From UHGV virus genome UHGV-0357162: a DNA stretch of 40,644 bases. The stretch is one strand, 5' to 3'. Shown here in pieces: positions 1 through 37,690 of the stretch. The notes under the pieces are model-generated. The model searched no databases and had not been told where the DNA came from. It worked only from the letters and a program-made list of their open reading frames with translations. The DNA comes from a virus. A program made the translations under genes and the position numbers. Position 1 is the stretch's first letter; each line of letters starts with the position of its first letter.

Positions 1-575
1 ACCAACCCGGACTTGTTCCCCTTATAAAGTGGGAACGTGCCAAGGACCTTTCCGCCTAGTGTTAGTTGAAGTGTCGCCGCGTTGGTATTGTTCTGAACGG
101 GGAAAACGATAATCGGGGTTCGTAGCGTCCAGTCTGTACCTCCATTAACAAAAAACGTCGAGGGAAGTTCCAGCGTCAGTGCGTTTGCAGTGCCACCAGC
201 AACACCCGCAATATAATGACCGCTCTGAAGCTGCGCTATCTGTACGAAATAGTTTTCCGAACCACGCGTGGCAAAGTTAGCCACAACGTCATTAAGGGAC
301 CAACCTTTCGCGGTCGTTCCTTCCTGCCCACGAATGACTTTCAACACATCACCGCTTACCGATACCAGGTGACAAATCTCAAATGCAGACTCTTTATTAT
401 CGGTAAGCGTAATTTTTGCATAGACGCGTTGCCCGTTCGATTTATTTTCAAAATCGGCAGAAAGCAATTTTGCAAATTTAGCTCCCGTGCCCGGCATCAC
501 CGGAATATCAGTCTGAATCGTCGTGATATCGCCAGCCAGTGCTGAAACAACGTTATTGCCAAATCCAAGAATCAT
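1..575 (-). CDS. putative tail fibre / host-specificity protein, N-terminal part (partial; continues past window start)
   Basis: Minus-strand frame open from ATG at 573-575 to the window edge; N-terminus MILGFGNNVVSALAGDITTIQ; ATGA stop/start overlap with the upstream gene; sits after the J-like and I-position genes. Confidence 0.4.
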   Translation of the reverse strand, partial: MILGFGNNVVSALAGDITTIQTDIPVMPGTGAKFAKLLSADFENKSNGQRVYAKITLTDNKESAFEICHLVSVSGDVLKVIRGQEGTTAKGWSLNDVVANFATRGSENYFVQIAQLQSGHYIAGVAGGTANALTLELPSTFFVNGGTDWTLRTPIIVFPVQNNTNAATLQLTLGGKVLGTFPLYKGNKSGL

Positions 576-1198
576 TTTTGAATCACCGTTGTTGCATAGG
601 AATAAATAAAAGGGAGTTTTACATATTTCTGGTCAATGGCATCTTTAAGAAAATAGCCTATGCCATCGCCATACTCTGGTATCTGAATAGAAAAAACACT
701 GTCCGATACAGTCACACTCACATCAAAAGTATGCTGCAATGGCGGGTCTATTCCGTTTTTCCCATGAATGAACCGTGCCACACGGCGCTTTAACCAGTCA
801 ATGCAGAAATGCGAACCGTCAGCCTTATAAAAATTCCAAGTTAATATTCGCTTGAAATAATCATCCGGAACATACGATGCCTGCCCCGGAACATAATTCC
901 GCATTGCCGCATAAGGGATTGTATTGTATTCAATGGTATCGTATGCGCCGCGTGCAATAGCCTCCTCGGAAACCTGTAGTAAAGGCCTTTCAACGCCATA
1001 AATCCCGAGTGCAATCCAGTCCAGCAACTGCCCGGTTATTGATTCCGATGTCCAGCATGGCAATGCCAGATTGTTGAGTGAGTCGAGGTATTCCTGAGCA
1101 ATTTCATTGTATGCATCAAAGAACGCAACAACATTCGGATCATCTCTGTACTGCACAAATGGATAAGCAGGGAGAATTTTCTCAGTCAGATATTGCAT
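572..1198 (-). CDS. tail/baseplate protein in gpI position (hypothetical)
   Basis: Track ORF 572..1306; likely start at MQYLTEKIL (1198), overlapping the stop of the J-like gene; position between J-like gene and fibre. Confidence 0.4.
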   Translation of the reverse strand: MQYLTEKILPAYPFVQYRDDPNVVAFFDAYNEIAQEYLDSLNNLALPCWTSESITGQLLDWIALGIYGVERPLLQVSEEAIARGAYDTIEYNTIPYAAMRNYVPGQASYVPDDYFKRILTWNFYKADGSHFCIDWLKRRVARFIHGKNGIDPPLQHTFDVSVTVSDSVFSIQIPEYGDGIGYFLKDAIDQKYVKLPFIYSYATTVIQK

Positions 1199-2408
1199 GC
1201 TTGTTGACCTGAACCTGTGATGCCACCGTTGAAAAATAGGAATAGGTATCGCCATAAACCAGGCTTGTGTCTTTCGCCGGAAGAACAATATGGCCGTTAA
1301 TACCAATGCTCACACTGATTGTTGAGATCAACGTCGCATCAACCAGCAACCTGACGGAACTGGTAAAAATATCCTGGATACGCAGAAGATTTATCGGGTG
1401 TCCGACTTCAATTGAATTGATGTAATCAGCAACGTTTTGCTGCACAGCCATAGCAATACCCGCCGGATCAACATAATCATCAGACACCGTGTTCCAGGTG
1501 ATTAGCACCATGACGTTTTGTGATGACGGGATAACGAACGGCACCTGATAAACGTCCGGCGAAACGGTTATTGAAACCGTGCGTTTTTCCACTGCCGCAC
1601 CGGATGGATTGCTTACATCGTTGGTCAGTTTCGAAATATCCGGTACAGATTTGTAAATCGCATAAGCCACATCATACGGATCACCGCCACCAACAACCGC
1701 AACCCATTTCCCCAGCGACGACTGCCGAAAAGAAATCAGGTTTTCTCGCACACCGTTTACTGATTTGAGCATCGCTTTAAAGCAATCCGGTGTTCCCTGC
1801 ACACCAAACATGCCGGACTCCATGACTTCGGCGCGGTAAGATGCCCACGTTTGCGCCTCCTGACCTGGCATCCCTGCGGTAAGGTTCGTGCATTTTACAG
1901 GCTGGTCTTTTGGTACTGATGTAATGACCTGCGTCACGGTCCCTTCCGGTACAGCCCATGAGCCTGACGTTGTGGCCACACAGTAAACTGGCTCAGTCTG
2001 CCCGCTTTCCGGTATCACAGTATCGCGGGAAACCGCATACTGGTAGTTACCGTCACCAACCACAAATCCTTTAGGGATACCAAACCCCGGCAACGCCTCA
2101 AACACCACGTATACCGCCGTATTTGTACTTAATCCCTTCTGTGCTCCATATATGTTTCCGAGTTGCATCAGTAACGGAATATTCGCGCCGTATGGGCTTA
2201 CAGAGTTAATAAGGTCCACCCGCGCCTGGTCTATTAATGCCAGCGCCCCTACTGCCGTGCTGGCAAGGTCTGTAATAAGTCCTGCCGGAAGGTTGGCTGT
2301 ATATCCAGGTACTTTTTCAGCAACTCTGGTGATAAGATTCGCGAGCAAATCATTGGGTGGCGTAGGCTGCGCACCCGCACTGGTCATAGTAATTGGTATT
2401 TCTGACAT
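1182..2408 (-). CDS. baseplate J-like protein
   Basis: 408 aa; position and composition resemble the baseplate J family; compare in-window Mu gp47-like protein at 37690..38769. Confidence 0.55.
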   Translation of the reverse strand: MSEIPITMTSAGAQPTPPNDLLANLITRVAEKVPGYTANLPAGLITDLASTAVGALALIDQARVDLINSVSPYGANIPLLMQLGNIYGAQKGLSTNTAVYVVFEALPGFGIPKGFVVGDGNYQYAVSRDTVIPESGQTEPVYCVATTSGSWAVPEGTVTQVITSVPKDQPVKCTNLTAGMPGQEAQTWASYRAEVMESGMFGVQGTPDCFKAMLKSVNGVRENLISFRQSSLGKWVAVVGGGDPYDVAYAIYKSVPDISKLTNDVSNPSGAAVEKRTVSITVSPDVYQVPFVIPSSQNVMVLITWNTVSDDYVDPAGIAMAVQQNVADYINSIEVGHPINLLRIQDIFTSSVRLLVDATLISTISVSIGINGHIVLPAKDTSLVYGDTYSYFSTVASQVQVNKHAISD

Positions 2409-2422
2409 ATATCCCCTATATA

Positions 2423-2442
2423 AAAACCGCCGAAGCGGTTTT
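2423..2442 (-). terminator. rho-independent terminator downstream of the DUF1311-like moron
   Basis: Hairpin AAAACCGC-cgaa-GCGGTTTT; on the minus strand the stem is followed by TTTTTATAT; lies between the moron stop (2451) and the J-like start (2408). Confidence 0.5.
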
Positions 2443-2450
2443 AAGTTAAC

Positions 2451-3197
2451 TTATTTTGCCTGTTTCATTTTTTCCACCCTCTCAAGCATTCTTTTTACAT
2501 TTGATGGAGGATAGTTAAATTCATCGCCGTCTCCAAAAGAAATTTTTATAGGCTTCATTTTCATAACCAACTCTTTCAGAACTGCTTTACCAATTTCAGT
2601 TTTTGGCACTATAAAACCATTTCCATACAAGCATGATTTATAAGTTTTATAATATTCACCATTAATCAAAATTGGTGGATATTCTAATGGGCCATCAATT
2701 TGCACTGAATTATCGCAAAATCCATTACCTTTAGATTTTGAAGCAATAAAAATAGCTATTGTTCCATCATCGCCATACATCAGGAATCTATTTTTACTAA
2801 CACCTTCCAATGGAGGTAATATTATCAGTGCACCATCAATATACCATTCAGCGTAATTCTCTGATTCATTGATTATGTTCTCATTAATTTCATTTAAAGA
2901 TGAATATTCCCTGAATGCATTAGAATACCATTGTCGAACACATGATTCTGTTTTGCACTTCTCTCTTTCATTCCACAAGTCTGAAACAATTTTTCTAAAA
3001 GCTTTCTTATCAGTGCTCTCTAACTTTACTTTTTGATATAAAGAATTTAATTTATCATCAAGTTCAGATAATTCACTGTTGTTGCAAATTAACTTTTCAG
3101 AATATGATTTAGCTTTCGAGCAATCAAAAGATACTGCATTCGCAGTTCCTATTTGTAATAAAAAGGTAAACACTACAAATAATTTTAACTTAGACAT
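2451..3197 (-). CDS. secreted DUF1311/LprI-like protein (moron)
   Basis: Signal peptide MSKLKLFVVFTFLLQIGTANA; Cys-spaced motif FDCSKAKSYSEKLICNNSELSELDDKLNSLYQKV ... WYSNAFREY typical of the DUF1311 (lysozyme inhibitor LprI N-terminal) fold; GGAG RBS; markedly AT-rich relative to neighbours. Confidence 0.55.
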   Translation of the reverse strand: MSKLKLFVVFTFLLQIGTANAVSFDCSKAKSYSEKLICNNSELSELDDKLNSLYQKVKLESTDKKAFRKIVSDLWNEREKCKTESCVRQWYSNAFREYSSLNEINENIINESENYAEWYIDGALIILPPLEGVSKNRFLMYGDDGTIAIFIASKSKGNGFCDNSVQIDGPLEYPPILINGEYYKTYKSCLYGNGFIVPKTEIGKAVLKELVMKMKPIKISFGDGDEFNYPPSNVKRMLERVEKMKQAK

Positions 3198-3534
3198 CCT
3201 TAATCTCCTTATAAAACAGGAGAACAAATTTTACCCATTCTTAATGTCTGTTCAAGTTCATACTTTACAACCGCGCCCAGTTGAGTATGATTGGACGCAT
3301 GAGGCGTCGAAACCTCCCCCAAAAGCTGATTACCCAGCACCCTACAATGTGTTGGTTTTTTTATGCCTTTTTTTTGTGATGGCAATATGTGCGATCACAA
3401 CCCCGATCAATGTCGGGAGGGCGACGAATACAACACCCGAAAGGGGAATAAGTCCGCGGTATCTTTTGGGCCGTTTCGAACCTCCCGGCGCCACTACGTT
3501 AGTGGCAATTCGAAAAAAGCCAAAAGAGGTTACT

Positions 3535-4095
3535 ATGACCACCCAACTCATCACCGTGTTCAACGGAACCATTTCGAACGAAACCATCCTTCTATGCAAC
3601 GCTCGCGATCTGCATGCCTTTCTCGAAGTAGGTAAACGCTTTGCCACTTGGATTACCGAACGAATCAGCGAGTATGAATTCGTAGAAAATCAGGACTTTT
3701 TGATTATTTCCCAAAATCGGGAAAAAATCGGTAGAGGCAGACCAGCCAAAGACTACCATCTCACCCTGGACACCGCCAAAGAGCTGGCTATGGTCGAACG
3801 CAACGAAAAAGGACGCCAGATCCGCCGATACTTCATCGAGTGCGAGAAGAAGCTGCGCGAAGATACCACCAGCACACAATCCCCTCTGAATGTTGACATC
3901 ATCATGCGCGTCAGAAACGGCTCGGTTACCCACATTGAGCACCACAAATCAGGCTCAGTTATAACCACAGAATGGGCAATTCACTTACTACGCAAAAGTG
4001 GATGGATTGTCATGCCACGCGATGAACTTCTTAACACGCCACTGGCCCAATTGATACCCGAAAACTTGCCTCAAACCGGAACCTGCGTCCGGTAA
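3535..4095 (+). CDS. phage anti-repressor, AntA N-terminal domain plus KilA-C-like C-terminal domain
   Basis: Start MTTQLITVFNG with RBS AAAGAGG; motifs ATWITERISEYEFVENQDF (AntA-like) and DYHLTLDTAKELAMVERNEKGRQIRRYFIECEKK (KilAC-like). Opposite strand to the surrounding tail genes; the long track ORF 3079..4095 is an upstream extension. Confidence 0.7.
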   Translation: MTTQLITVFNGTISNETILLCNARDLHAFLEVGKRFATWITERISEYEFVENQDFLIISQNREKIGRGRPAKDYHLTLDTAKELAMVERNEKGRQIRRYFIECEKKLREDTTSTQSPLNVDIIMRVRNGSVTHIEHHKSGSVITTEWAIHLLRKSGWIVMPRDELLNTPLAQLIPENLPQTGTCVR

Positions 4096-4418
4096 CTGGT
4101 TCCGTTAAAAAACACAACATCGATGTTATAGGTGGGGTTCTCTGCCCCATCTACTTTTGAAATTGCCAGCGATGCAAAATACCCGGCATACTGTTGCTGA
4201 ACCATGTTCACATAGTAGTCCGGGTAAATCTGCTGCACGATGCACTGCTGCGCTGGAATGCCGTAATTCGCGTAAAACGGCGACTCCCCCAACCCCAGCT
4301 TTAACGTCTGAATGAGCGTCGTCAGCCAGCCGTAGGAGAAATCACCGTTGGCGTCTGACTCTACCGCCACCCATTTTTTGTTGCCGTTCGCGTCGGTGAC
4401 GCGGCCCCATGTTCTCAT
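4071..4418 (-). CDS. hypothetical tail-module protein (gpW position)
   Basis: Track ORF 4071..4451; likely start MRTWGRV at 4418 with GAGGG RBS; no recognisable gp25/W motif, so function unassigned. Confidence 0.4.
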   Translation of the reverse strand: MRTWGRVTDANGNKKWVAVESDANGDFSYGWLTTLIQTLKLGLGESPFYANYGIPAQQCIVQQIYPDYYVNMVQQQYAGYFASLAISKVDGAENPTYNIDVVFFNGTSYRTQVPV

Positions 4419-4425
4419 CGTGCCC

Positions 4426-4572
4426 TCACCACCATCGGATCTGGCCAACAAAATACCCAGACGCCAGAATCAGAAAGACCAACCAGATAAGTAAAAACTT
4501 CCAATTGGGAAATTTCTCGCCCATAACTCGAATCTCAACTAGTAATTTATAAACAATGAAAAGAAACTTCAT
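4426..4572 (-). CDS. small hydrophobic peptide, paralog A (48 aa from ATG 4572, or 32 aa from ATG 4524)
   Basis: MKFLFIVYKLLVEIRVMGEKFPNWKFLLIWLVFLILASGYFVGQIRWW; AAGGGA RBS before 4572; paralogous to 4691..4789. Confidence 0.4.
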   Translation of the reverse strand: MKFLFIVYKLLVEIRVMGEKFPNWKFLLIWLVFLILASGYFVGQIRWW

Positions 4573-4690
4573 ACAAATCCCTTTGTAACAATTACTTATA
4601 CCAAGTCATTCTATGCTTGAGTTCACGTAGCAAATCATCCATGAAGTAATTTGTTGTTTTTTCATTGCTATATGTAAAGTTATGTAAAAA

Positions 4691-4789
4691 TTACCGCCAC
4701 CGGATCGCCTGAATCAAAGCGGATAGTCCAAATAAGAAAAACACACGCCATATCAACAGGAATTTCCAGTTGGGTAATCTTTCGCCCAT
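4691..4789 (-). CDS. small hydrophobic peptide, paralog B (32 aa)
   Basis: MGERLPNWKFLLIWRVFFLFGLSALIQAIRWR; AAGGAG RBS 9 nt upstream; shares MGE(K/R)xPNWKFLLIW with paralog A. Confidence 0.4.
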   Translation of the reverse strand: MGERLPNWKFLLIWRVFFLFGLSALIQAIRWR

Positions 4790-4806
4790 TTCTCGTAACT
4801 CCTTTA

Positions 4807-4971
4807 TCAGTTTTTCAGGTAAATCAATGTACCCGCCACTAATGCAGTACAAATGATCCAGGCAACAGGCGTAAGTACGTGACGAATCCCTCGGCATACC
4901 GCGATTATCCTCGCAGCCTTATCTGCTCCTTGCGGAGTTGTCTCAGCCTTAAGAATCAGTTCGCTATCCAT
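4807..4971 (-). CDS. small membrane protein (54 aa)
   Basis: MDSELILKAETTPQGADKAARIIAVCRGIRHVLTPVAWIICTALVAGTLIYLKN; polar N-terminus and one predicted TM segment; below the ORF-track length cutoff; start overlaps the end of the upstream mini-ORF. Confidence 0.35.
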   Translation of the reverse strand: MDSELILKAETTPQGADKAARIIAVCRGIRHVLTPVAWIICTALVAGTLIYLKN

Positions 4972-5056
4972 TTAGAACCTTTATGATCTCTGCGATTCCC
5001 GGAAGAGATTTAGCAACAGCAAACCCTCCGATAACTATAAGAACTGCATAAAACAT
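4964..5056 (-). CDS. small hydrophobic peptide (30 aa)
   Basis: MFYAVLIVIGGFAVAKSLPGIAEIIKVLNG; first gene after the terminator at 5191..5224. Confidence 0.25.
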   Translation of the reverse strand: MFYAVLIVIGGFAVAKSLPGIAEIIKVLNG

Positions 5057-5190
5057 TCTTCTCAGAACCGGACTTCTTTCGAGCAATTTTAGAGCTTCCA
5101 CAATCCAGTCTCCTCCGCTAAAATTAATCACGGAAGACCTCCAAACATACGTAATTATCCCTTGCCTTATTCAAGGTCAGAAACAGAAAA

Positions 5191-5224
5191 CCCCGACTGG
5201 GCCAACAGTCGGGGTTTTCGTTTT
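5191..5224 (-). terminator. rho-independent terminator downstream of the spike-like gene
   Basis: Stem CCCCGACTG / CAGTCGGGG with 6-nt loop, A-run on one side and TTTTCGTTTT on the other (bidirectional architecture). Confidence 0.55.
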
Positions 5225-5256
5225 ATGGGTAGTATTTAAAGTGAAATGAACCGGTA

Positions 5257-5970
5257 TTAACCCGGATTTGGTTTCTTCGACGTGATCGTACTGCCACCGC
5301 TTTGAACACCAGTCACATCGTGACTGTGGCTGCTGGCGCTCACGCCGTTGATAACTGCATCTTTCTCGACCTTAAGAGGACCAATCAGCGAAGCGGTTGT
5401 ATCCTTCATCTGGGCTTTGTCCTGGACGATCGGTCCGTTGAGGTGAATTTGACCGTTCATGAAGATATCTTCGGCCTCGAGGTAAACAGCTTTCGACTTT
5501 AGCCTGATTTCTTCCGGTGCCACCGTTACCGAGCTACTGCCGTCCTCTGTTTTGATGATCGCGCCATCCGGACCGTACAAAACGATTTTTTGCGGATCTT
5601 CGTCGGACCAGTCCTTGTTTGCCAGTGGCACGAAAAACAGGGGAGTGAGCGACATCGAGTAAGAGAGCGTCGCCATACCGGTTCCCAATCCGGACACACC
5701 GCGCAGGGATACATCAGCGGCAATTGTTACTCCTCGATCACCCGGCTGTATCGGGTAACGGATATACGGGAATGTGGCGACAGGGATTGTTATCTGCGGA
5801 AAGTTGATCCCCTCTGGCAACATATCAAACTGAACGGTCACTATCTGCCCACTGACATCGACAACATGGCAGGGCAATTCACGGCCTTTAAGCTCGGCTT
5901 GCTGGTTGCCAGAACTGGTCATCATCTCCGACAGCGTTCGGAGAAACGGTAATTTTTGAGCGTTTGACAT
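5257..5970 (-). CDS. baseplate central spike protein (gpV-like)
   Basis: 237 aa; C-terminus INGVSASSHSHDVTGVQSGGSTITSKKP resembles the His-rich apex of gpV/gp5-type spikes; ATGA overlap with the upstream gene. Confidence 0.55.
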   Translation of the reverse strand: MSNAQKLPFLRTLSEMMTSSGNQQAELKGRELPCHVVDVSGQIVTVQFDMLPEGINFPQITIPVATFPYIRYPIQPGDRGVTIAADVSLRGVSGLGTGMATLSYSMSLTPLFFVPLANKDWSDEDPQKIVLYGPDGAIIKTEDGSSSVTVAPEEIRLKSKAVYLEAEDIFMNGQIHLNGPIVQDKAQMKDTTASLIGPLKVEKDAVINGVSASSHSHDVTGVQSGGSTITSKKPNPG

Positions 5971-6965
5971 TACACCCTCGCCCAGTTCTCAGCATATGCC
6001 TCAAATACCGTCACCCAGGCATCGCCATCAGCTGTCAGATACGAACCAATGTGTCTGACCGATTTCACAAGAAATTTCCCGGTGAACGTGGTCGAATTTT
6101 TTGCGATAACGCTGGGTGCCGTTGTATTAGCCATCACAATCGACGCAGCGCCAGAATATAGCCCCTCCGGCAGTTTAACCACATCACCACATCTGATATC
6201 GCCTCTCATAGGACATTTGAAACTGACGGTAAACGGCGCTATCCATGTCGGCTGCCCGACCAGTTCATGGGCATGAATTGTTTTTGGCTCCCCCCACTTT
6301 GCTGACGCGTTATCGTAAATTCGTATTCTGTCGGAAAGAATACTGATGGCAATCCCGCTGTATTTCTCATCGCGCATCATTGCAATTGAAGCACTACGGA
6401 GGACCATAGCCAGCGAACCAATATCTTCGTAGGTTCCATTCCACGGTTCCGGCAAAACGAGGCTGTCGCTGACAGTACAATCGATCAACTTATTCGGAAA
6501 TGCCTTTTGCAACGCACGGAAGATTACATCACCAACCTTTTCCCCTTTAAGCCCCTCCCCCTCGATAGAGAACGGTTTACCATCATCTGTTTTGCGTACG
6601 GTTGGATTTATTACCAGGTTTAAGGTCTGGTTCGTGCCGATCCAGTTGGCATAGGCCAGATAAATTTCGCCATAAATAACCTCACCCTGTTGCTGTGGAT
6701 TTGCCAAAGGCAATCCCTCAACAAAGCCCGCTTTCATACGGACCAGACACCCCTGCAAACTCACGCTTTGCTTCAGCATGTCGATAGGCAAACCGTATAT
6801 TGTGAGCATCGTTCCTGAATTCACTACATCAAGACCCGCTACCTCTGTGGGGTAGTGATCAATTCTGGGCGGAGTTCGTGCAGCCTGGTAGAACCTGCAA
6901 GCCTTGTGTGGCGCGGGGTATGGTGATTTAGTGTGATTCTGGGCGGATTTGTGAGAAATGACCAA
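5970..6965 (-). CDS. baseplate hub-like protein, possibly 5'-truncated at the Mu-like prophage junction
   Basis: Track ORF starts at a TTG; the first ~28 codons (MVISHKSAQNHTKSPYPAPHKACRFY) look like translated non-coding DNA and overlap repeats 6863..6946; confident coding from about residue 30 (PRIDHYPTEVAGLDVV) or from M at 6809. Confidence 0.4.
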   Translation of the reverse strand: MVISHKSAQNHTKSPYPAPHKACRFYQAARTPPRIDHYPTEVAGLDVVNSGTMLTIYGLPIDMLKQSVSLQGCLVRMKAGFVEGLPLANPQQQGEVIYGEIYLAYANWIGTNQTLNLVINPTVRKTDDGKPFSIEGEGLKGEKVGDVIFRALQKAFPNKLIDCTVSDSLVLPEPWNGTYEDIGSLAMVLRSASIAMMRDEKYSGIAISILSDRIRIYDNASAKWGEPKTIHAHELVGQPTWIAPFTVSFKCPMRGDIRCGDVVKLPEGLYSGAASIVMANTTAPSVIAKNSTTFTGKFLVKSVRHIGSYLTADGDAWVTVFEAYAENWARV

Positions 6966-7158: not shown

Positions 7159-7806
7159 TTATGCTGATTTCTTGTTTACAGGCTTAGTTTCTTGCTCCGG
7201 TGTGACGGGAACGCGATCACCTGGTGTTCCAGCACAGAAAATGGCTTTGGCGCGGCGCAAAATCTCTTTGTCATTTTCCTCATCGCCAGCTAATGCCATG
7301 CAAACAGCGTCTTTAAGCGATTGCCTGATGTTCAGGCTTTGAATGGCCTTCCTTTGCTCCTCAAGTTCGCTATCGGCTTGCTTAGTTTGCCTGGTGGGTT
7401 GCTGTAGGCGTTCCAAGATTCCTTTAATGCCCATATCGCATATTGCACTTATCAGTTGTTCCTTATCTTCTGTGGACGCTCTTTTCAATAACTCGTTAAC
7501 TAGCTCGTTTGTAATATCGGGAGAAGGCTGCGCTGTTTGATTTGATAGAGAACCTTCTTTGGCGGTGGGTTCCTCACCATAAGCGAGCCAATTTAAGCTC
7601 ACTTGTTCTTTATCTGAGATAAGACAAGCTATTTTAAAAGAAGGCTCTGTTCCTTTATGAATGTAGTTGTTTAAGGTTGAAGGGGGGATTCCCCAATCAC
7701 TCGCAGCAGTTCTGACACTACGGTTACCTATCAGCTTTACTAAACGCTCTCTGAAACTTTCTTTTCCCTGGTCGACAAAAGAAAAAGCATCATCATTTCT
7801 AGTCAT
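7159..7806 (-). CDS. prophage repressor (Mu c position), HTH DNA-binding protein
   Basis: 215 aa, transcribed divergently from the ner-like gene; N-terminal helix-turn-helix-like region SVRTAASDWGIPPSTLNNYIHKG. Confidence 0.55.
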   Translation of the reverse strand: MTRNDDAFSFVDQGKESFRERLVKLIGNRSVRTAASDWGIPPSTLNNYIHKGTEPSFKIACLISDKEQVSLNWLAYGEEPTAKEGSLSNQTAQPSPDITNELVNELLKRASTEDKEQLISAICDMGIKGILERLQQPTRQTKQADSELEEQRKAIQSLNIRQSLKDAVCMALAGDEENDKEILRRAKAIFCAGTPGDRVPVTPEQETKPVNKKSA

Positions 7807-7988: not shown

Positions 7989-8225
7989 ATGATGGTTAGA
8001 AATGAAGTAATGAACAAAGACTGGCACCGCGAGTACATCGTTGCCGCTGTGCACACCAAAGGTTTTACATTGCGTGAACTTTCTGAACGCGCTGGTCTAA
8101 AAAAAGACTCTTTAAAAAATGCACTGTATCGCTCATGCCCTAAATATGAACGCATCATAGCCGATGCTATTGGTGTGGAACCTGCGGAGATCTGGCCAAG
8201 CCGGTATGCCAGTAAGGCGGCGTAA
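7989..8225 (+). CDS. ner: Ner-like DNA-binding protein
   Basis: About 78 aa starting MMVRNEVMNKDWHREYIVAAVHTKGFTLRELSERAGL; position directly upstream of the transposase with TAATG overlap; the track N-terminal extension covers the operator. Confidence 0.7.
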   Translation: MMVRNEVMNKDWHREYIVAAVHTKGFTLRELSERAGLKKDSLKNALYRSCPKYERIIADAIGVEPAEIWPSRYASKAA

Positions 8226-10267
8226 TGTTTTATTCAGCCAATGAGCTGGCCGGTCTTCCTGGTTTGCCCGGTACAGTTCAGGGGGTGCGCTGGACGCTCA
8301 ATCGGATCACAGAGACGCACCCAGAATGGAAGCGCAAGCGCGAAGGCACCAAAGCATTCGAGTATCACATCGACTGCCTGCCCGCTGAAGCGCAGAAAGT
8401 TTTACGTAAGCGCCTGACTCATCAGGTCCTGGAAGATGCACAACTGCCCGCCGTAGTTGAGCAGAAAGCAGTTAAAAACGTCGCCGTTCGCGATGAACTG
8501 GAGGTGATGGTCAAATGCCCGGAGCTGGCATTACGCGAAGTCCAGTCACTGACCGACAAGCAAAAGGCCATCGCTGATGCGCGGATATTGCTGGCTACTG
8601 AAGTGCATAAGCTGCGCGAGTATGCCGGAATGACCAGGAAGGCCGCTTTAAAGCACATCGTTGATGGTGTGCGCATGGGGGCGTTACCTGACCGCATTAT
8701 CGAAGCAGCGAATACTGCAAATGCACGTCAGGGAAAGCGAACCGGTGTCAGCACCGGCAGCCTGGATAGCTGGTACTCCAGCTGGGTGATGGCGCGCGGT
8801 GATGCCAATCAGTTACTGGCGTTACTGGCTCCCGGTCATCATAAGGGAACACCGTGGGAGCAGGTCTGGTGGTTGAGCGATTTCTTTATGTTCTATCGCT
8901 CATGGAAGCGCCCGACTGTTGAATATGCGTATCGTGAGTTTTCAGCCTGGTGGCATGAAAAACACGCGAATGATGCGGGAATGCTGGCGGCACTGCCTTC
9001 AGTTCACGCAGTAAGACGGGTGTTAAGCAGCGTCCCGGTGATTGTTAAAGAGCGTTTCCGCTCCACCGGTTCAGCCTGGCGTTCGCTCAATCCCTTTGTG
9101 CGGCGCGACTGGACATCATTACCGGTTAATGCGGTATGGGTCGGGGATGGTCACTGTATGAAAATGACCGCGTTTAACCCCCTGACCGGCAATATTTTCC
9201 GGCCAGAAGTGACGCTGGTTATGGATGCGGGGCAACGCTTTGTTGTGGGCTGGTCACTGTCCCTGTCGGAGAACGTGATAGCCGTTGCTGATGCGTTACG
9301 TTACGGCATGGCGCAGCACGGGATACCGCTGATTTATTACTCCGATAACGGGGGCGGTGAAAAAAACCGGGTGCTTGATGCCGATATTACCGGGATTCTG
9401 CCCCGGCTGGGTGTGGAACATCACACGGGGATACCAGGTAACCCGCAGGGGCGCGGGGTGATTGAACGGGCAAACAAAGGAATACCCAAAGACGTGGCTC
9501 TGAGTTTCCAGACGTACTGCGCAAGGGATGCAGACAAGGAAACCGTAATGATGCAGCAACGGATTATGCAGTCAGCCATTAAGGCCACCCACAAAGGGAA
9601 AGAACTGACAAAACGGCAGGTTAAGGCGAGGGATGAAATCCCCACCTTTGAGCAACTGCTGGCAGCCATAGAGCTGGAGGTCAGACGCTATAACAACCGG
9701 CCACACAGCAGCCTACCCCGCAAAGAGGATGGCGAATATTACAGCCCGGCAGCGTATCGCCGGAAACTGATAAAAGAGCAGAATGTTGAAATTGATTTCC
9801 TGTCGCCGGAAGAACTGCATGAAATGTTCAGACCGGAAGTGACGCGCAAAACATTTCGCGGGGAAATTCAGTTATTCAACAATATTTATTACTCATATGA
9901 TCTGGCCGCAGAGCACGGGAATGAAGTCAGGGTCAGTTACGATATTCATGATGCAAACAGCGTCATTGTCCGGCGGGCTGATGGCTCTTATATCTGCGAT
10001 GCCATCTGGAACGGTAACAAGGTTGATGCCTTCGCTAAACCAGTTATCGAACAAAAACTGGAGAAACGCGTCAGGGGCCGCATTGCACGGGCTACGCAGA
10101 AAATCGAAGAGGCTAAACGCGAGCTTACCCCGGCTATTACGCAGAAGCCTGACTTTAATCTGGGATATGGACTGGAGCGCCCGGAGAAAAAGGAAAAAGA
10201 AGAACTTTATTTATTCGCATCTGAACGCGAGCGCAATTTAAAGAAAAACGGCACAAACAACCGTTAA
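8225..10267 (+). CDS. A: Mu A-type DDE transposase
   Basis: 680 aa; N-terminus ANELAGLPGLPGTVQGV resembles the MuA DNA-binding N-terminus; DDE-core-like VWVGDGHCMKM; followed by the MuB-like ATPase. Confidence 0.9.
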   Translation: MFYSANELAGLPGLPGTVQGVRWTLNRITETHPEWKRKREGTKAFEYHIDCLPAEAQKVLRKRLTHQVLEDAQLPAVVEQKAVKNVAVRDELEVMVKCPELALREVQSLTDKQKAIADARILLATEVHKLREYAGMTRKAALKHIVDGVRMGALPDRIIEAANTANARQGKRTGVSTGSLDSWYSSWVMARGDANQLLALLAPGHHKGTPWEQVWWLSDFFMFYRSWKRPTVEYAYREFSAWWHEKHANDAGMLAALPSVHAVRRVLSSVPVIVKERFRSTGSAWRSLNPFVRRDWTSLPVNAVWVGDGHCMKMTAFNPLTGNIFRPEVTLVMDAGQRFVVGWSLSLSENVIAVADALRYGMAQHGIPLIYYSDNGGGEKNRVLDADITGILPRLGVEHHTGIPGNPQGRGVIERANKGIPKDVALSFQTYCARDADKETVMMQQRIMQSAIKATHKGKELTKRQVKARDEIPTFEQLLAAIELEVRRYNNRPHSSLPRKEDGEYYSPAAYRRKLIKEQNVEIDFLSPEELHEMFRPEVTRKTFRGEIQLFNNIYYSYDLAAEHGNEVRVSYDIHDANSVIVRRADGSYICDAIWNGNKVDAFAKPVIEQKLEKRVRGRIARATQKIEEAKRELTPAITQKPDFNLGYGLERPEKKEKEELYLFASERERNLKKNGTNNR

Positions 10268-10285: not shown

Positions 10286-11179
10286 ATGAGTTTAATTACG
10301 CAATTAAATGACGTAATGGCCCGTCGCGGCTATACGCAGACCCACGTCGCCCGTGCTATTGGTCGTAGCAGCGCCGTTATCAACCAGTATTTACAGGGTA
10401 AATATCAGGGCGATATGGCTGATATTGAAGAACGCATTTCTGCCTTTGTGACCCGTGAGCGGGAAAAGGAAAACAGCCGCCGTATTAAAGCGAAATTTGT
10501 TGCCACCGGTATGGCTGCCAAAGGACTGGAAGTGCTGGCCTATGCTCACCTGGAATGTGAAATCTGCGTACTGTATGGCGCGGCAGGTCTTGGCAAAACA
10601 ATGATTCTGCGTGAATACGCCGCCAGAAACCGGGATGCGGTCCTGATTGAAGCTGACCCGGGCTATACAGCCAGAACACTGCTTGAGGAGCTGTGCCGCC
10701 AGCTGGGGGTAAAAGTTCGCGGCAATATCCACGAACTGATTGATGCATGTGTGCGAGAACTGCGTGATTCCGGTCGCCTGCTGATGGTGGACGAGGCTGA
10801 ACTGCTCCCCTATCGCGCACTGGAGGTTCTGCGCCGTCTGCATGACAAAGCGGGTATCGGGATTGTCCTGGCGGGTATGCCACGCCTTCTGATTAACCTC
10901 AAGGGACGTCGCGGTGAGTTCGCCCAGTTATACAGCCGTGTGGCGCTGGCGCTTAACCTGGGCGATACGCTGGCGCAGGAAGATTTTAACCAGATAGCCA
11001 CCGGGCTGATGCCGGAAGCAGCAGAACCGGAAATCAGCGAGGCGCTTTATACACGTTCGCTGGGTAATGCCCGCCGCCTGTTCAAACTGGCGCGTGGTGT
11101 GTACCGGATTTGTGATATCAGCGATGCACCGGTCAGTGTGCAGGCCATTGATAAATTCGCAGAAATGTTAATTCACTGA
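10286..11179 (+). CDS. B: Mu B-type AAA+ ATPase target DNA activator
   Basis: 297 aa; Walker A LYGAAGLGKT and Walker B LLMVDEAE; N-terminal HTH; immediately follows the transposase. Confidence 0.85.
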   Translation: MSLITQLNDVMARRGYTQTHVARAIGRSSAVINQYLQGKYQGDMADIEERISAFVTREREKENSRRIKAKFVATGMAAKGLEVLAYAHLECEICVLYGAAGLGKTMILREYAARNRDAVLIEADPGYTARTLLEELCRQLGVKVRGNIHELIDACVRELRDSGRLLMVDEAELLPYRALEVLRRLHDKAGIGIVLAGMPRLLINLKGRRGEFAQLYSRVALALNLGDTLAQEDFNQIATGLMPEAAEPEISEALYTRSLGNARRLFKLARGVYRICDISDAPVSVQAIDKFAEMLIH

Positions 11180-36635: not shown

Positions 36636-37286
36636 TGTGGGACAAGGTTAATCAGCGCATACAGCAGGCACTGGCCGCCGTTCGCCAGGCATTCAGGGTG
36701 GTGACCGGTACGGTAGACAGTTCTACCAAAGTACAGCTACTTCAGCTGAACGGTCTGGCAGGCGAACAACTGGACGGTGCGGAGTATTTCCAGCATTACG
36801 GCCTCACCACATCCCCGCCGCCCGGCTCAATGGGTATTGCCGTTCCGCTGAACGGTAATACCTCCCATACCGTCGTCGTGGCCACAGAGCACGGCGCATA
36901 TCGCCTGACGGAACTGAAACCCGGCGAGGTGGCCCTGTATACCGACGAAGGCGCGAAAATCGTGCTGAAGCGCGGGCGGATTGTTGAAACCGAATGTGAC
37001 GTTTACCGGGTGAAATGCAAACGCTATGAGGTTGAGGCAGAGGAAAGCGCCGCATTCACGACACCGTTACTGACGGCCAGCGATAAGCTGACGGTGGAAG
37101 GTAAAATCACCGGCAACGGTGGCATGGCCATCCGTGGGGGGCAAGAAATACGCCGCCACCTTTGAAGGCAACATCAACCATGTGGGTGGTGTGATTACCT
37201 CCGTTGACGTCACCATTAATGGCGTTAAAATCGGAACGCACAAACACCCGACCCCACACGGCATGTCTGACACGCCGGTTAATTAA
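36632..37286 (+). pseudogene. baseplate spike gp45-like gene interrupted by a +1 frameshift in a G6 tract (about 37136..37141); track ORF ends at 37165, C-terminal apex is encoded in the next frame to 37286
   Basis: Removing one G gives ...AIRGGKKYAATFEGNINHVGGVITSVDVTINGVKIGTHKHPTPHGMSDTPVN, a His-rich spike-tip-like C-terminus ending just before the late box at 37287. Confidence 0.55.
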
Positions 37287-37315
37287 GTGCTGAACACCCT
37301 CACCTGATTCTGACC
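37287..37315 (+). promoter_or_regulatory. conserved late-promoter box, copy 3 (GTGCTGAACACCCTCACCTGATTCTGACC), upstream of gp46
   Basis: Identical 16-bp core to copy 2; lies 53 bp upstream of the gp46 ATG. Confidence 0.45.
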
Positions 37316-37339
37316 TGTCCATGCTGCCAGACTGGCGGC

Positions 37340-37690
37340 ATGGACCAGACGATTTCACCTGCAACCGGCGACTACGAACGCCGCCGGATTTATACACTTC
37401 ATAACGCGGTTTATCTGCGACTGGCGACGCCGCTTGGCAGTTACTGGGCGGATGCGTCGCTGGGGTCACGCCTGCACGAACTGAAGCGGGAAAAAGACGT
37501 TTCCCGTGTTCACAGGCTGGCGGCGCAGTATGCCAGCCAGGCTCTTCAGCCCCTGCTTGATGACGGGCGGGCAAAATCCATTACCGTTGACACGAAAGCG
37601 GGTCAGCGCGGCTGGCTGTTGCTGTTAATCACCGTCACGGATAACGCGGGCACACCGCAGACGTTTGAACACCCTGTGAGGATTATGTAA
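37340..37690 (+). CDS. Mu gp46-like baseplate protein
   Basis: 116 aa; position between spike and J-like genes. Confidence 0.55.
   Translation: MDQTISPATGDYERRRIYTLHNAVYLRLATPLGSYWADASLGSRLHELKREKDVSRVHRLAAQYASQALQPLLDDGRAKSITVDTKAGQRGWLLLLITVTDNAGTPQTFEHPVRIM

Follow-up and report, generated by a model that had tools for sequence, protein, structure and literature searches.

Short antisense RNAs that start within, or adjacent to, the 5' end of a phage gene, cover its ribosome-binding site and end at a hairpin terminator are known from the sar/ant pair of phage P22 and the OOP/cII pair of phage lambda. HK97 gp15 is a small inner-membrane protein, the gene of which is inserted between tail genes, and the lambda products S107 and S105 are a nested, dual-start holin/antiholin pair made from one small membrane-protein gene. 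This work concerns a locus of the UHGV virus genome UHGV-0357162 (40,644 nucleotides; the whole stretch is called the window throughout), at which four very small minus-strand genes, ORF1, ORF2, copy A and copy B (ORF, open reading frame), lie between a V-like baseplate/spike gene and the gene at the W position of a prophage baseplate module. What is new here is a widespread cassette, represented at this locus by ORF1, in which a small membrane-protein gene is preceded by a terminator and overprinted by a predicted reverse promoter, and which provides a concrete and testable model of control.

The layout of the RNA predicted for the cassette resembles that of P22 sar-ant. The target is here a membrane peptide, however, whereas ant encodes an antirepressor, and the similarity to sar is sub-threshold. 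The insert shares with tail-operon morons such as the HK97 gene a low GC content and a variable presence. The gene content of its slot varies between related prophages, and its GC content over 838 bp is 41%, as opposed to 52% for the genes on either side. Classical morons, in contrast, are expressed in the lysogen from a promoter of their own and are followed by a terminator; here the terminator lies upstream, rather than downstream, of the genes, a sense promoter of their own was not found, and only an antisense promoter is predicted. As for S107/S105, two nested products are plausible in the cassettes, and many copies reside inside lysis cassettes. Yet the cassette peptides have a single transmembrane (TM) segment and no charged C-terminal tail, only 3-8 residues following the membrane segment, and match no holin profile in Pfam or PHROGs; the window copy sits in a baseplate operon, homologues lie between R and Rz, and the phages that carry them have S-type holins of their own.

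Type I toxin-antitoxin pairs, such as hok/sok and hokW-sokW, resemble the cassette in having a hydrophobic, single-TM peptide of fewer than 60 amino acids (aa), frequent tandem paralogs and a prophage location, and in a short antisense RNA across the translation start, which for the cassette is a prediction. They differ because the peptide gene of the cassette has no promoter of its own and is co-oriented within a late structural operon, and because copies A and B lack an antisense module. No type I family (Hok, Ldr, Ibs, TisB, ShoB, Zor; Sok, Sib, OhsC) was matched in Pfam or NCBIfam, and Rfam gave sub-threshold scores only. The hokW-sokW pair of prophage Sp5 assists phage-mediated lysis and phage release (PMC8621323). 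A further precedent is the IsrK-orf45-anrP system of Gifsy-1, in which a terminator is followed after ~30 nt by a 45-codon ORF with two in-frame starts and a stop codon abutting the next gene, and the mRNA arises by terminator read-through (PMC4825925). The two AUGs of orf45 are 4 codons apart, and its amino-acid sequence has been reported as not conserved (PMC4825925). The regulator there is a sense-strand small RNA (sRNA), not an antisense one. Identity of the two systems was rejected, since the ORF is a different one, start arrangement and conservation differ, and none of five loci has an Rfam match to IsrK. The enterohaemorrhagic E. coli anti-sRNAs AsxR and AgvB were rejected as well, because they are located downstream of PR' and not at the position of the cassette. 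The unit is outside every described toxin, holin or sRNA family.

Four small genes under purifying selection

The four ORFs are real genes under purifying selection, omega ranging from 0.02 to 0.25. ORF2 and its W13-16 orthologue are separated by 28 synonymous and 4 non-synonymous differences (omega 0.02). Omega is 0.18 for copy A versus Salmonella phage SEN34, 0.14 for copy B versus phage Rac-SA53, and 0.16-0.25 for ORF1 versus six homologues of 49-66% identity, whereas the same comparisons in shifted reading frames give values of 0.5-5. The occurrence of the ORFs is thus more than chance. A first-pass annotation of the window, drawn from the sequence alone, had named an untranslated leader as the finding that would speak against its four peptide genes, and conservation in related elements as the one to look for. 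Homologous proteins were found in many prophages and genera, and omega far below 1 contradicts an untranslated leader. RefSeq is blank here and the ORFs are short, but a leader or intergenic regulatory region in which they occur by chance is very improbable. The same annotation had stated that the genes would be missed by routine annotation. This holds for RefSeq, which annotates nothing in 4419-5256, but not for some GenBank submissions, in which A (32 aa) and B (48 aa) are annotated as hypothetical proteins; the 48-aa form of B appears in the E. coli W and KO11FL records.

Four consecutive minus-strand ORFs, the AT-rich spacer between the paralogs, and the MGE(K/R)xPNWKFLLIW sequence common to A and B were described correctly in the first-pass annotation. 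The 30-aa peptide listed there (4964-5056) is in turn the C-terminal part of ORF1, which starts at a GTG preceded, 6 nt upstream, by a GGAGG ribosome-binding site. The gene is assigned 55 aa, not 30, because the strongest conservation lies upstream of the Met earlier chosen as start: the N-terminus (NFSGGDWIVEALKLL..LRRMFY) is the best-conserved part of its family. The general reading of that annotation, accessory membrane peptides, is supported, a membrane location being soundly deduced from the single strongly hydrophobic segment found in each; the toxin-like, superinfection-exclusion or lysis-modulating roles that it put forward are candidate functions.

Each protein, of 32-55 aa, carries one C-terminal hydrophobic segment of 19 residues (Kyte-Doolittle 1.9-2.2; residues 29-47 in ORF1). 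Since the segment is single and C-terminal, and Lys/Arg residues are commoner on its N-terminal side in each product, an N-in, C-tail-anchored topology is predicted for all four. Three families are represented. Copies A and B match the profile of phrog_6632 (E 2.8e-12 for A; for B, 2.4e-17 in the 32-aa and 3.5e-21 in the 48-aa form), a family of 45-aa phage proteins labelled 'unknown function' in PHROGs. They share with members such as SEN34_23, Rac-SA53 rac58 and CP-1639 EC_CP1639_39 the PNWKF..TM..IRWW core, and the SEN34 and Rac-SA53 members occupy the same V-W slot. Membership gives no mechanistic explanation, the family having no assigned function. ORF1 and ORF2 do not match phrog_6632. 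ORF1 belongs to a second family (family 2, 33 IMG/VR loci), with the conserved N-terminus NFSGG(D/E)WIV(E/K)ALKL...LRRM(F/Y)Y, and ORF2 to a third (39 IMG/VR loci), a Sodalis homologue of which lies directly after a family-1 gene. Profile searches of Pfam and NCBIfam gave no match, nor did PADLOC for the 45-aa form, A, ORF1 or ORF2, and the names of homologues in databases are all 'hypothetical' or 'putative bacteriophage protein'.

The normal form of the family of A and B (family 1) is 45 aa long, starts with GTG and has the N-terminus x-D-F-S-K-L-I-R-E-(I/L)-R-(V/L)-M. Translation includes the N-terminal extension, as its spacer codons 7-9 differ between sequences yet still encode Leu-Ile-Arg. 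A GGAG precedes the invariant Met14 by ~9 nt, so that a second, 32-aa product starting there is plausible on sequence grounds. A and B differ from the 45-aa form in lacking the first 13 residues and the GTG start. They keep only ~KL(I/L)xE(I/L)RxM onward, with no equivalent start codon and the internal Met alone retained, and correspond to the short form of the family. The two are indeed paralogs, as had been proposed, but old 5'-truncated ones: the comparison of A with B shows saturation at synonymous sites (pS 0.82; pN 0.31), which indicates that they were brought together and do not stem from a recent duplication. The nearest lineage is SEN34 for A and Rac-SA53 for B.

Copies A and B could be viewed as decaying, 5'-truncated leftovers of recombination, non-functional in this prophage. 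Along with the family GTG start and the DFSK motif they lack leader and hairpin, the spacer between them holds a further fragment similar to a family 5' end, ORF2 is frameshifted in one relative (L012), the full arrangement is rare, and the left prophage is disrupted in this strain by a Mu-like insertion. Against decay, both ORFs are intact, and AAGGAG, a strong ribosome-binding site, stands 9 nt ahead of A. The internal Met is present without exception across the family, and in loci L153, L174, L105 and L117 other small membrane genes are followed by stand-alone peptides of ~28-52 aa with an RWW end. In addition, copy B of the window and that of E. coli W are distinguished by synonymous changes only. 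On balance, decay is an unlikely account of the two copies. For B, the ATG of the 48-aa form has a better ribosome-binding site than that of the 32-aa form.

Within the spacer, on the minus strand at 4590-4640, a short ORF fragment (MDDLLRELKHRMTWYK) is similar to the helix at the N-terminus of family-1 proteins (DFSKLIRELRVM). By its sequence it looks like a recombination remnant of the 5' end of another cassette.

A conserved hairpin, leader and promoter-like motif

In every context the canonical unit consists of an A-tract, a GC-rich hairpin, a T-tract, a leader of 35-55 nt ending in a ribosome-binding site, and the start codon. Families 1 and 2 together comprise 32 non-redundant cassettes, and every one has this layout, with the hairpin upstream and a reverse promoter motif within the first 12 codons. 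Within the window, the control module is attached to ORF1 alone. The hairpin folds in 32/32 cassettes (dG -12 to -30 kcal/mol), and many stems differ in sequence yet stay complementary. Hairpins were assessed by folding each sequence, and MAFFT plus RNAalifold recovered just the outer terminator stem, the inner ones being lost because loops and inner stems misalign. A terminator scan scores the window hairpin as terminator on both strands. The first-pass annotation had noticed the hairpin, placing it at 5191-5224 and attributing it to the spike gene; its position is corrected in Table 1, and it is a conserved component of the cassette rather than the terminator of that gene. In the Azoarcus copy the T-tract is present in the antisense direction only. 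A small leader hairpin (CCUUG..CAAGG) is out of register between Stx-type (Shiga-toxin phage) and other cassettes, and no covariation is claimed for it.

The predicted reverse-facing promoter in the 5' end of ORF1, absent from the first-pass annotation, is the most informative clue to the control of the unit. It is situated within codons 3-12 and is one of two promoter-like sites in 3900-5500; the scan of the window flagged TCCACA-16-TAAAAT independently of the comparison of cassettes. In family 2 the motif is T(C/T)CAC(A/G), 16 nt and TAAAAT without TG (10/10 cassettes); family 1 has an extended -10, TGnTAAAAT, and a weak -35 at 17 nt (22/22 cassettes). A reciprocal strength of -35 and extended -10 is the behaviour of real promoters. 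Codons 3-6 of family 1 (GAT TTT AGC AAA) display no synonymous variation, Ser being AGC and Arg12 CGA in 24/24 sequences each; synonymous-pair fractions of the TM codons are 0.35-0.76. In the Azoarcus copy the protein sequence has changed from DFS to NFI, and TGATAAAAT is kept on the antisense strand. GC-rich Pseudomonas phages likewise retain the motif. In E. coli W, the ORF2'-type cassette showed no convincing reverse promoter, and no convincing promoter was found in the A-B spacer of the window.

From this promoter an antisense RNA of 75-97 nt (~95 nt for ORF1, ~75 nt for family 1) is predicted, covering start codon and ribosome-binding site. The predicted RNA would fold into a small 5' hairpin followed by the terminator (-35.8 kcal/mol, z = -4.9), and homologous predicted RNAs from Rac-SA53, TL-2011c and a Pseudomonas phage fold alike (z from -2.5 to -4.9 overall). 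No Rfam family reached threshold in the window and five related loci. Sub-threshold scores were 21.6-24.3 bits for sar (gathering threshold 43; partly on the wrong strand) and 19.7 for ohsC (threshold 50), and the weak matches to sar, ohsC and ctRNA were dismissed as reflecting only a generic hairpin-plus-terminator shape.

These features may be accommodated in a model in which the insert is a composite moron between V and W, made of four genes, each for a very small inner-membrane protein whose N-terminus is cytoplasmic and whose one transmembrane helix is followed by few residues. The genes are drawn from a pool of cassettes moving between late-operon junctions of unrelated phages. The opposite-strand promoter, of a constitutive sigma-70 type, would make the antisense RNA, ending at the hairpin, by which peptide synthesis would be shut off in the lysogen or during early infection. 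Since no sense-strand promoter was detected within the insert, the genes would be transcribed solely by read-through of the late operon. The peptides would then be made late in lytic growth and act on the cytoplasmic membrane, helping or timing its collapse and lysis in the manner of HokW, encoded by prophage Sp5, and other type I toxins. ORF2 may be translationally coupled to ORF1, and A and B may be start-truncated copies translated from the invariant internal Met of the family. We favor this model of late-expressed, antisense-gated, membrane-active peptides tentatively, at somewhat less than even probability.

Several points weigh against it. Promoters were called by consensus alone, the relatedness of the sequences inflates the apparent conservation, and the antisense RNA and the toxicity of the peptides are predictions. 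Profiles of known toxins, holins and defence systems are unmatched, a full-text literature search for the peptide sequences retrieved nothing, and the peptides are absent from the supplement of the Sakai ribosome-profiling paper on small genes. A and B are devoid of hairpin, leader and reverse promoter, hence the control model does not cover them. An efficient terminator right before essential baseplate genes is moreover awkward, barring read-through or antitermination. Lastly, arrays of 2-4 diversified paralogs fit an arms race at least as well as a role in lysis.

The latter point is in favor of morons benefiting the lysogen, or excluding superinfecting phages, the small inner-membrane proteins blocking the entry of incoming phage DNA as HK97 gp15. 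The membrane topology would suit such a role, the genes lie at moron hot spots in tail, baseplate and lysis operons, and other cargo adjoins them in the window, an AntA/AntB antirepressor and an LprI-family lysozyme inhibitor. Superinfection exclusion would however require expression in the lysogen, and the conserved reverse promoter argues against this: facing the wrong way across the ribosome-binding site, and combined with the initial terminator, it would silence the unit there. The insert yields no sense-strand promoter, though a weak one might be concealed in the low-GC spacer ahead of copy B. PADLOC has no match, and HK97 is not among the best 30 of the 53 phage records obtained by tblastn, its presence in the collection being unchecked. 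An exclusion function is held to be improbable.

The leader and the end of the gene raise another possibility, that the unit is a regulatory device, in which translation of the small ORF is coupled to that of the next late gene (W or Rz), and antisense RNA and leader set downstream expression. A precedent is IsrK-orf45-anrP, where coupling to a small ORF placed behind a terminator gates the gene that follows (PMC4825925). Across all contexts, 1-15 nt lie between the stop codon of the peptide and the next start; in the window the end of copy B (TGGTGGTGA) is immediately upstream of the W-position gene, the ATG of which is 8 nt past the stop codon. The last codons, TGG TGG TGA, resemble a ribosome-binding site, and in the minimum-energy fold the leader can pair with the ribosome-binding site. 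A purely regulatory ORF is nevertheless hard to reconcile with selection on the TM part at the protein level, where many changes are synonymous and few non-synonymous, unlike in orf45. The unit is also dispensable, as particular members are missing from related prophages, and no IsrK match was found. We deem a device of this kind rather unlikely.

Mobility between late-operon junctions

The genes are mobile accessory cargo and not baseplate machinery, as shown by low GC, variable content of the slot, and relatives in other, unrelated late-operon slots. The proposal that they are accessory to the canonical baseplate operon is thereby confirmed. Members of family 1 were detected by tblastn in 53 phage records, and occur in 411 IMG/VR stretches and in 13 species-representative genomes (Escherichia, Trabulsiella, Yersinia, two Citrobacter, Edwardsiella, Sodalis, Brenneria, Pantoea, Providencia, Dryocola, Pseudomonas and an Azoarcus metagenome-assembled genome). 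The family is nearly absent from plasmids (9 of 72,556 records), which makes a role in plasmid stability unlikely. ORF1 and ORF2 gave no tblastn match in 50,697 phage records, and both are known from prophage contigs only. Searches relied on tblastn and locus scans, as a word-indexed large protein database returned just 5 matches, because such small ORFs are rarely called.

Cassettes reside at distinct junctions. The slot between V-like and W-like baseplate genes is occupied in SEN34, Rac-SA53 and Yersinia and Pantoea prophages. The slot between endolysin R and Rz, where the gene abuts the Rz start, is occupied in H-19B, TL-2011c, CP-1639, many Stx1a, Stx2a and Stx2c phages and Salmonella SPN3UB. 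The slot between tail-tip genes K and I is used in Pseudomonas phages, and one family-2 cassette precedes a gene that is tape-measure-like by its N-terminal sequence alone. Among classifiable copies the next gene is Rz in 63 and W-like in 26. Closely related prophages of the E. coli lineage house one to four such genes between V and W: one canonical gene in Rac-SA53, ORF1 and ORF2 in W13-16, an ORF2 variant, A and B in E. coli W, and all four genes in the window, an arrangement shared by 6 of the 5,426 complete E. coli genomes. The matches of the window are to prophages in such complete genomes, and over this region STEC711 and five further ones are identical or nearly identical to it.

Arrays of small single-TM genes are found elsewhere too, as the four preceding the W-like gene of a Dryocola clanedunensis prophage (L105, ~2590-3110). 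In this locus, and in L117, L123 and L127, two to four such ORFs lie in similar slots, and include hybrids combining an ORF2-like N-terminus (SEKGADKAG) with an ...IRWW end. In L117, L123, L127 and L143 the array is followed by an ORF of 60-91 aa with a lipoprotein-like LVGC or LVSC motif. To judge from these sequences, the arrays suggest one shuffling superfamily of tail-anchored peptides.

Altogether, the data may point to a widespread, undescribed phage-borne cassette akin to type I toxin-antitoxin systems. In such a cassette, an antisense RNA of 75-97 nt from an overprinted promoter would gate a C-tail-anchored peptide made in nested 45- and 32-aa forms, the unit hopping among R-Rz, V-W, K-I and tape-measure-like junctions across Gamma- and Betaproteobacteria, and diversifying into arrays. 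This broader claim is possible, but is advanced with reserve, at roughly a one-in-three level of belief.

Prophage context and significance

Table 1. Features of the V-W region of the window.
Feature	Position	Strand	Remarks
V-like baseplate/spike gene	5257..5970	-	upstream neighbour; 'phage baseplate protein' in RefSeq; bppV in Rac-SA53
Bidirectional intrinsic terminator hairpin, 14 bp	5186..5219	both	A-tract on 5' side, T-tract on 3' side; 5' boundary of the cassette
Predicted sigma-70 promoter	5097..5124	+	-35 TCCACA 5097-5102, 16-nt spacer, -10 TAAAAT 5119-5124
Predicted antisense RNA, ~95 nt	5130..5226	+	complementary to start codon, ribosome-binding site and leader of ORF1
ORF1, 55 aa, family 2	4964..5131	-	GTG start at 5131; VINFSGGDWIVEALKLLERSPVLRRMFY, then TM segment
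ORF2, 54 aa, single-TM	4807..4971	-	ATG overlaps ORF1 stop codon (ATGGATAG)
Copy A, 32 aa (MGERLPNWKFLLIWRVFFLFGLSALIQAIRWR)	4691..4789	-	phrog_6632 member without the start of the 45-aa form
A-B spacer, AT-rich, 166 bp, 27.7% GC	4525..4690		remnant similar to a family 5' end (MDDLLRELKHRM...)
Copy B	4426..4572	-	32 aa from ATG 4524 (MGEKFPNWKFLLIW...IRWW) or 48 aa from ATG 4572
W-position gene	4071..4418	-	downstream neighbour; phrog_7986, E 5.9e-64; RefSeq coding sequence

Two more cargo genes lie between the W-position gene and a J-like baseplate wedge gene (1182-2408): an AntA/AntB-family antirepressor (~3535-4095, opposite strand) and an LprI-family lysozyme-inhibitor-like gene (2451-3227). 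The whole V-to-J stretch is an accessory-gene hot spot. The match with the intact prophage of STEC711 (99.985% over 1-6845) breaks off inside the baseplate-hub gene at 6845/6846. A Mu-like transposable prophage, the end of which begins with TG, extends from 6846 to 40644 on the plus strand, and encodes repressor (7159-7806), transposase A (8225-10267), B (10286-11179) and tail/baseplate genes to ~40149. Since the insertion interrupts the hub gene, the left prophage is probably defective in this strain. A gap in the baseplate module of the Mu-like prophage (37165-37340) contains no comparable peptide gene.

Other small ORFs were noticed in related loci. Salmonella phage SPN3UB has an unannotated hydrophobic ORF of 36 aa (MSKRDVSALCFLMAAAVAISGNDGWGWLIFAGIIIL; L009 2736-2846), which lies ahead of the cassette hairpin and overlaps the stop codon of the endolysin gene, and the ending of which (...IIIL) recurs in IMG/VR locus L153. 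In prophage Sp15 of E. coli O157 Sakai (L178 14749-14895) the R-Rz gap holds an antirepressor gene (ant) and then a 48-aa single-TM gene, ECs_5741 (MGWLMISDKLITLVKSL...), before Rz; a similar peptide is encoded in IMG/VR locus L127. By sequence, a small membrane-protein gene just upstream of Rz is a feature that recurs with unrelated members. As the R-Rz slot of Sp15 holds different cargo, published Sp15 maps are unusable for the cassette. The prophage sRNAs STnc100 and AsxR were met downstream of the late promoter region in Stx-phage and Citrobacter loci (L006 7844-8103, L003 2995-3204, L096 439-557 and 1119-1329), and are unrelated to the cassette.

Genes of this kind occur in thousands of E. 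coli and Salmonella genomes, including the lysis cassettes of Shiga-toxin phages, and are mostly omitted in RefSeq. Should the peptides work as exclusion factors, the arrays of paralogs would represent a simple system to study phage-phage arms races. If antisense RNA and membrane activity are both true, the cassettes would constitute a new mobile module of temperate phages, regulatory as well as toxic, and a compact example of a promoter overprinted on coding sequence. Such a module could affect the timing of lysis, and hence the release of phage and Shiga toxin.

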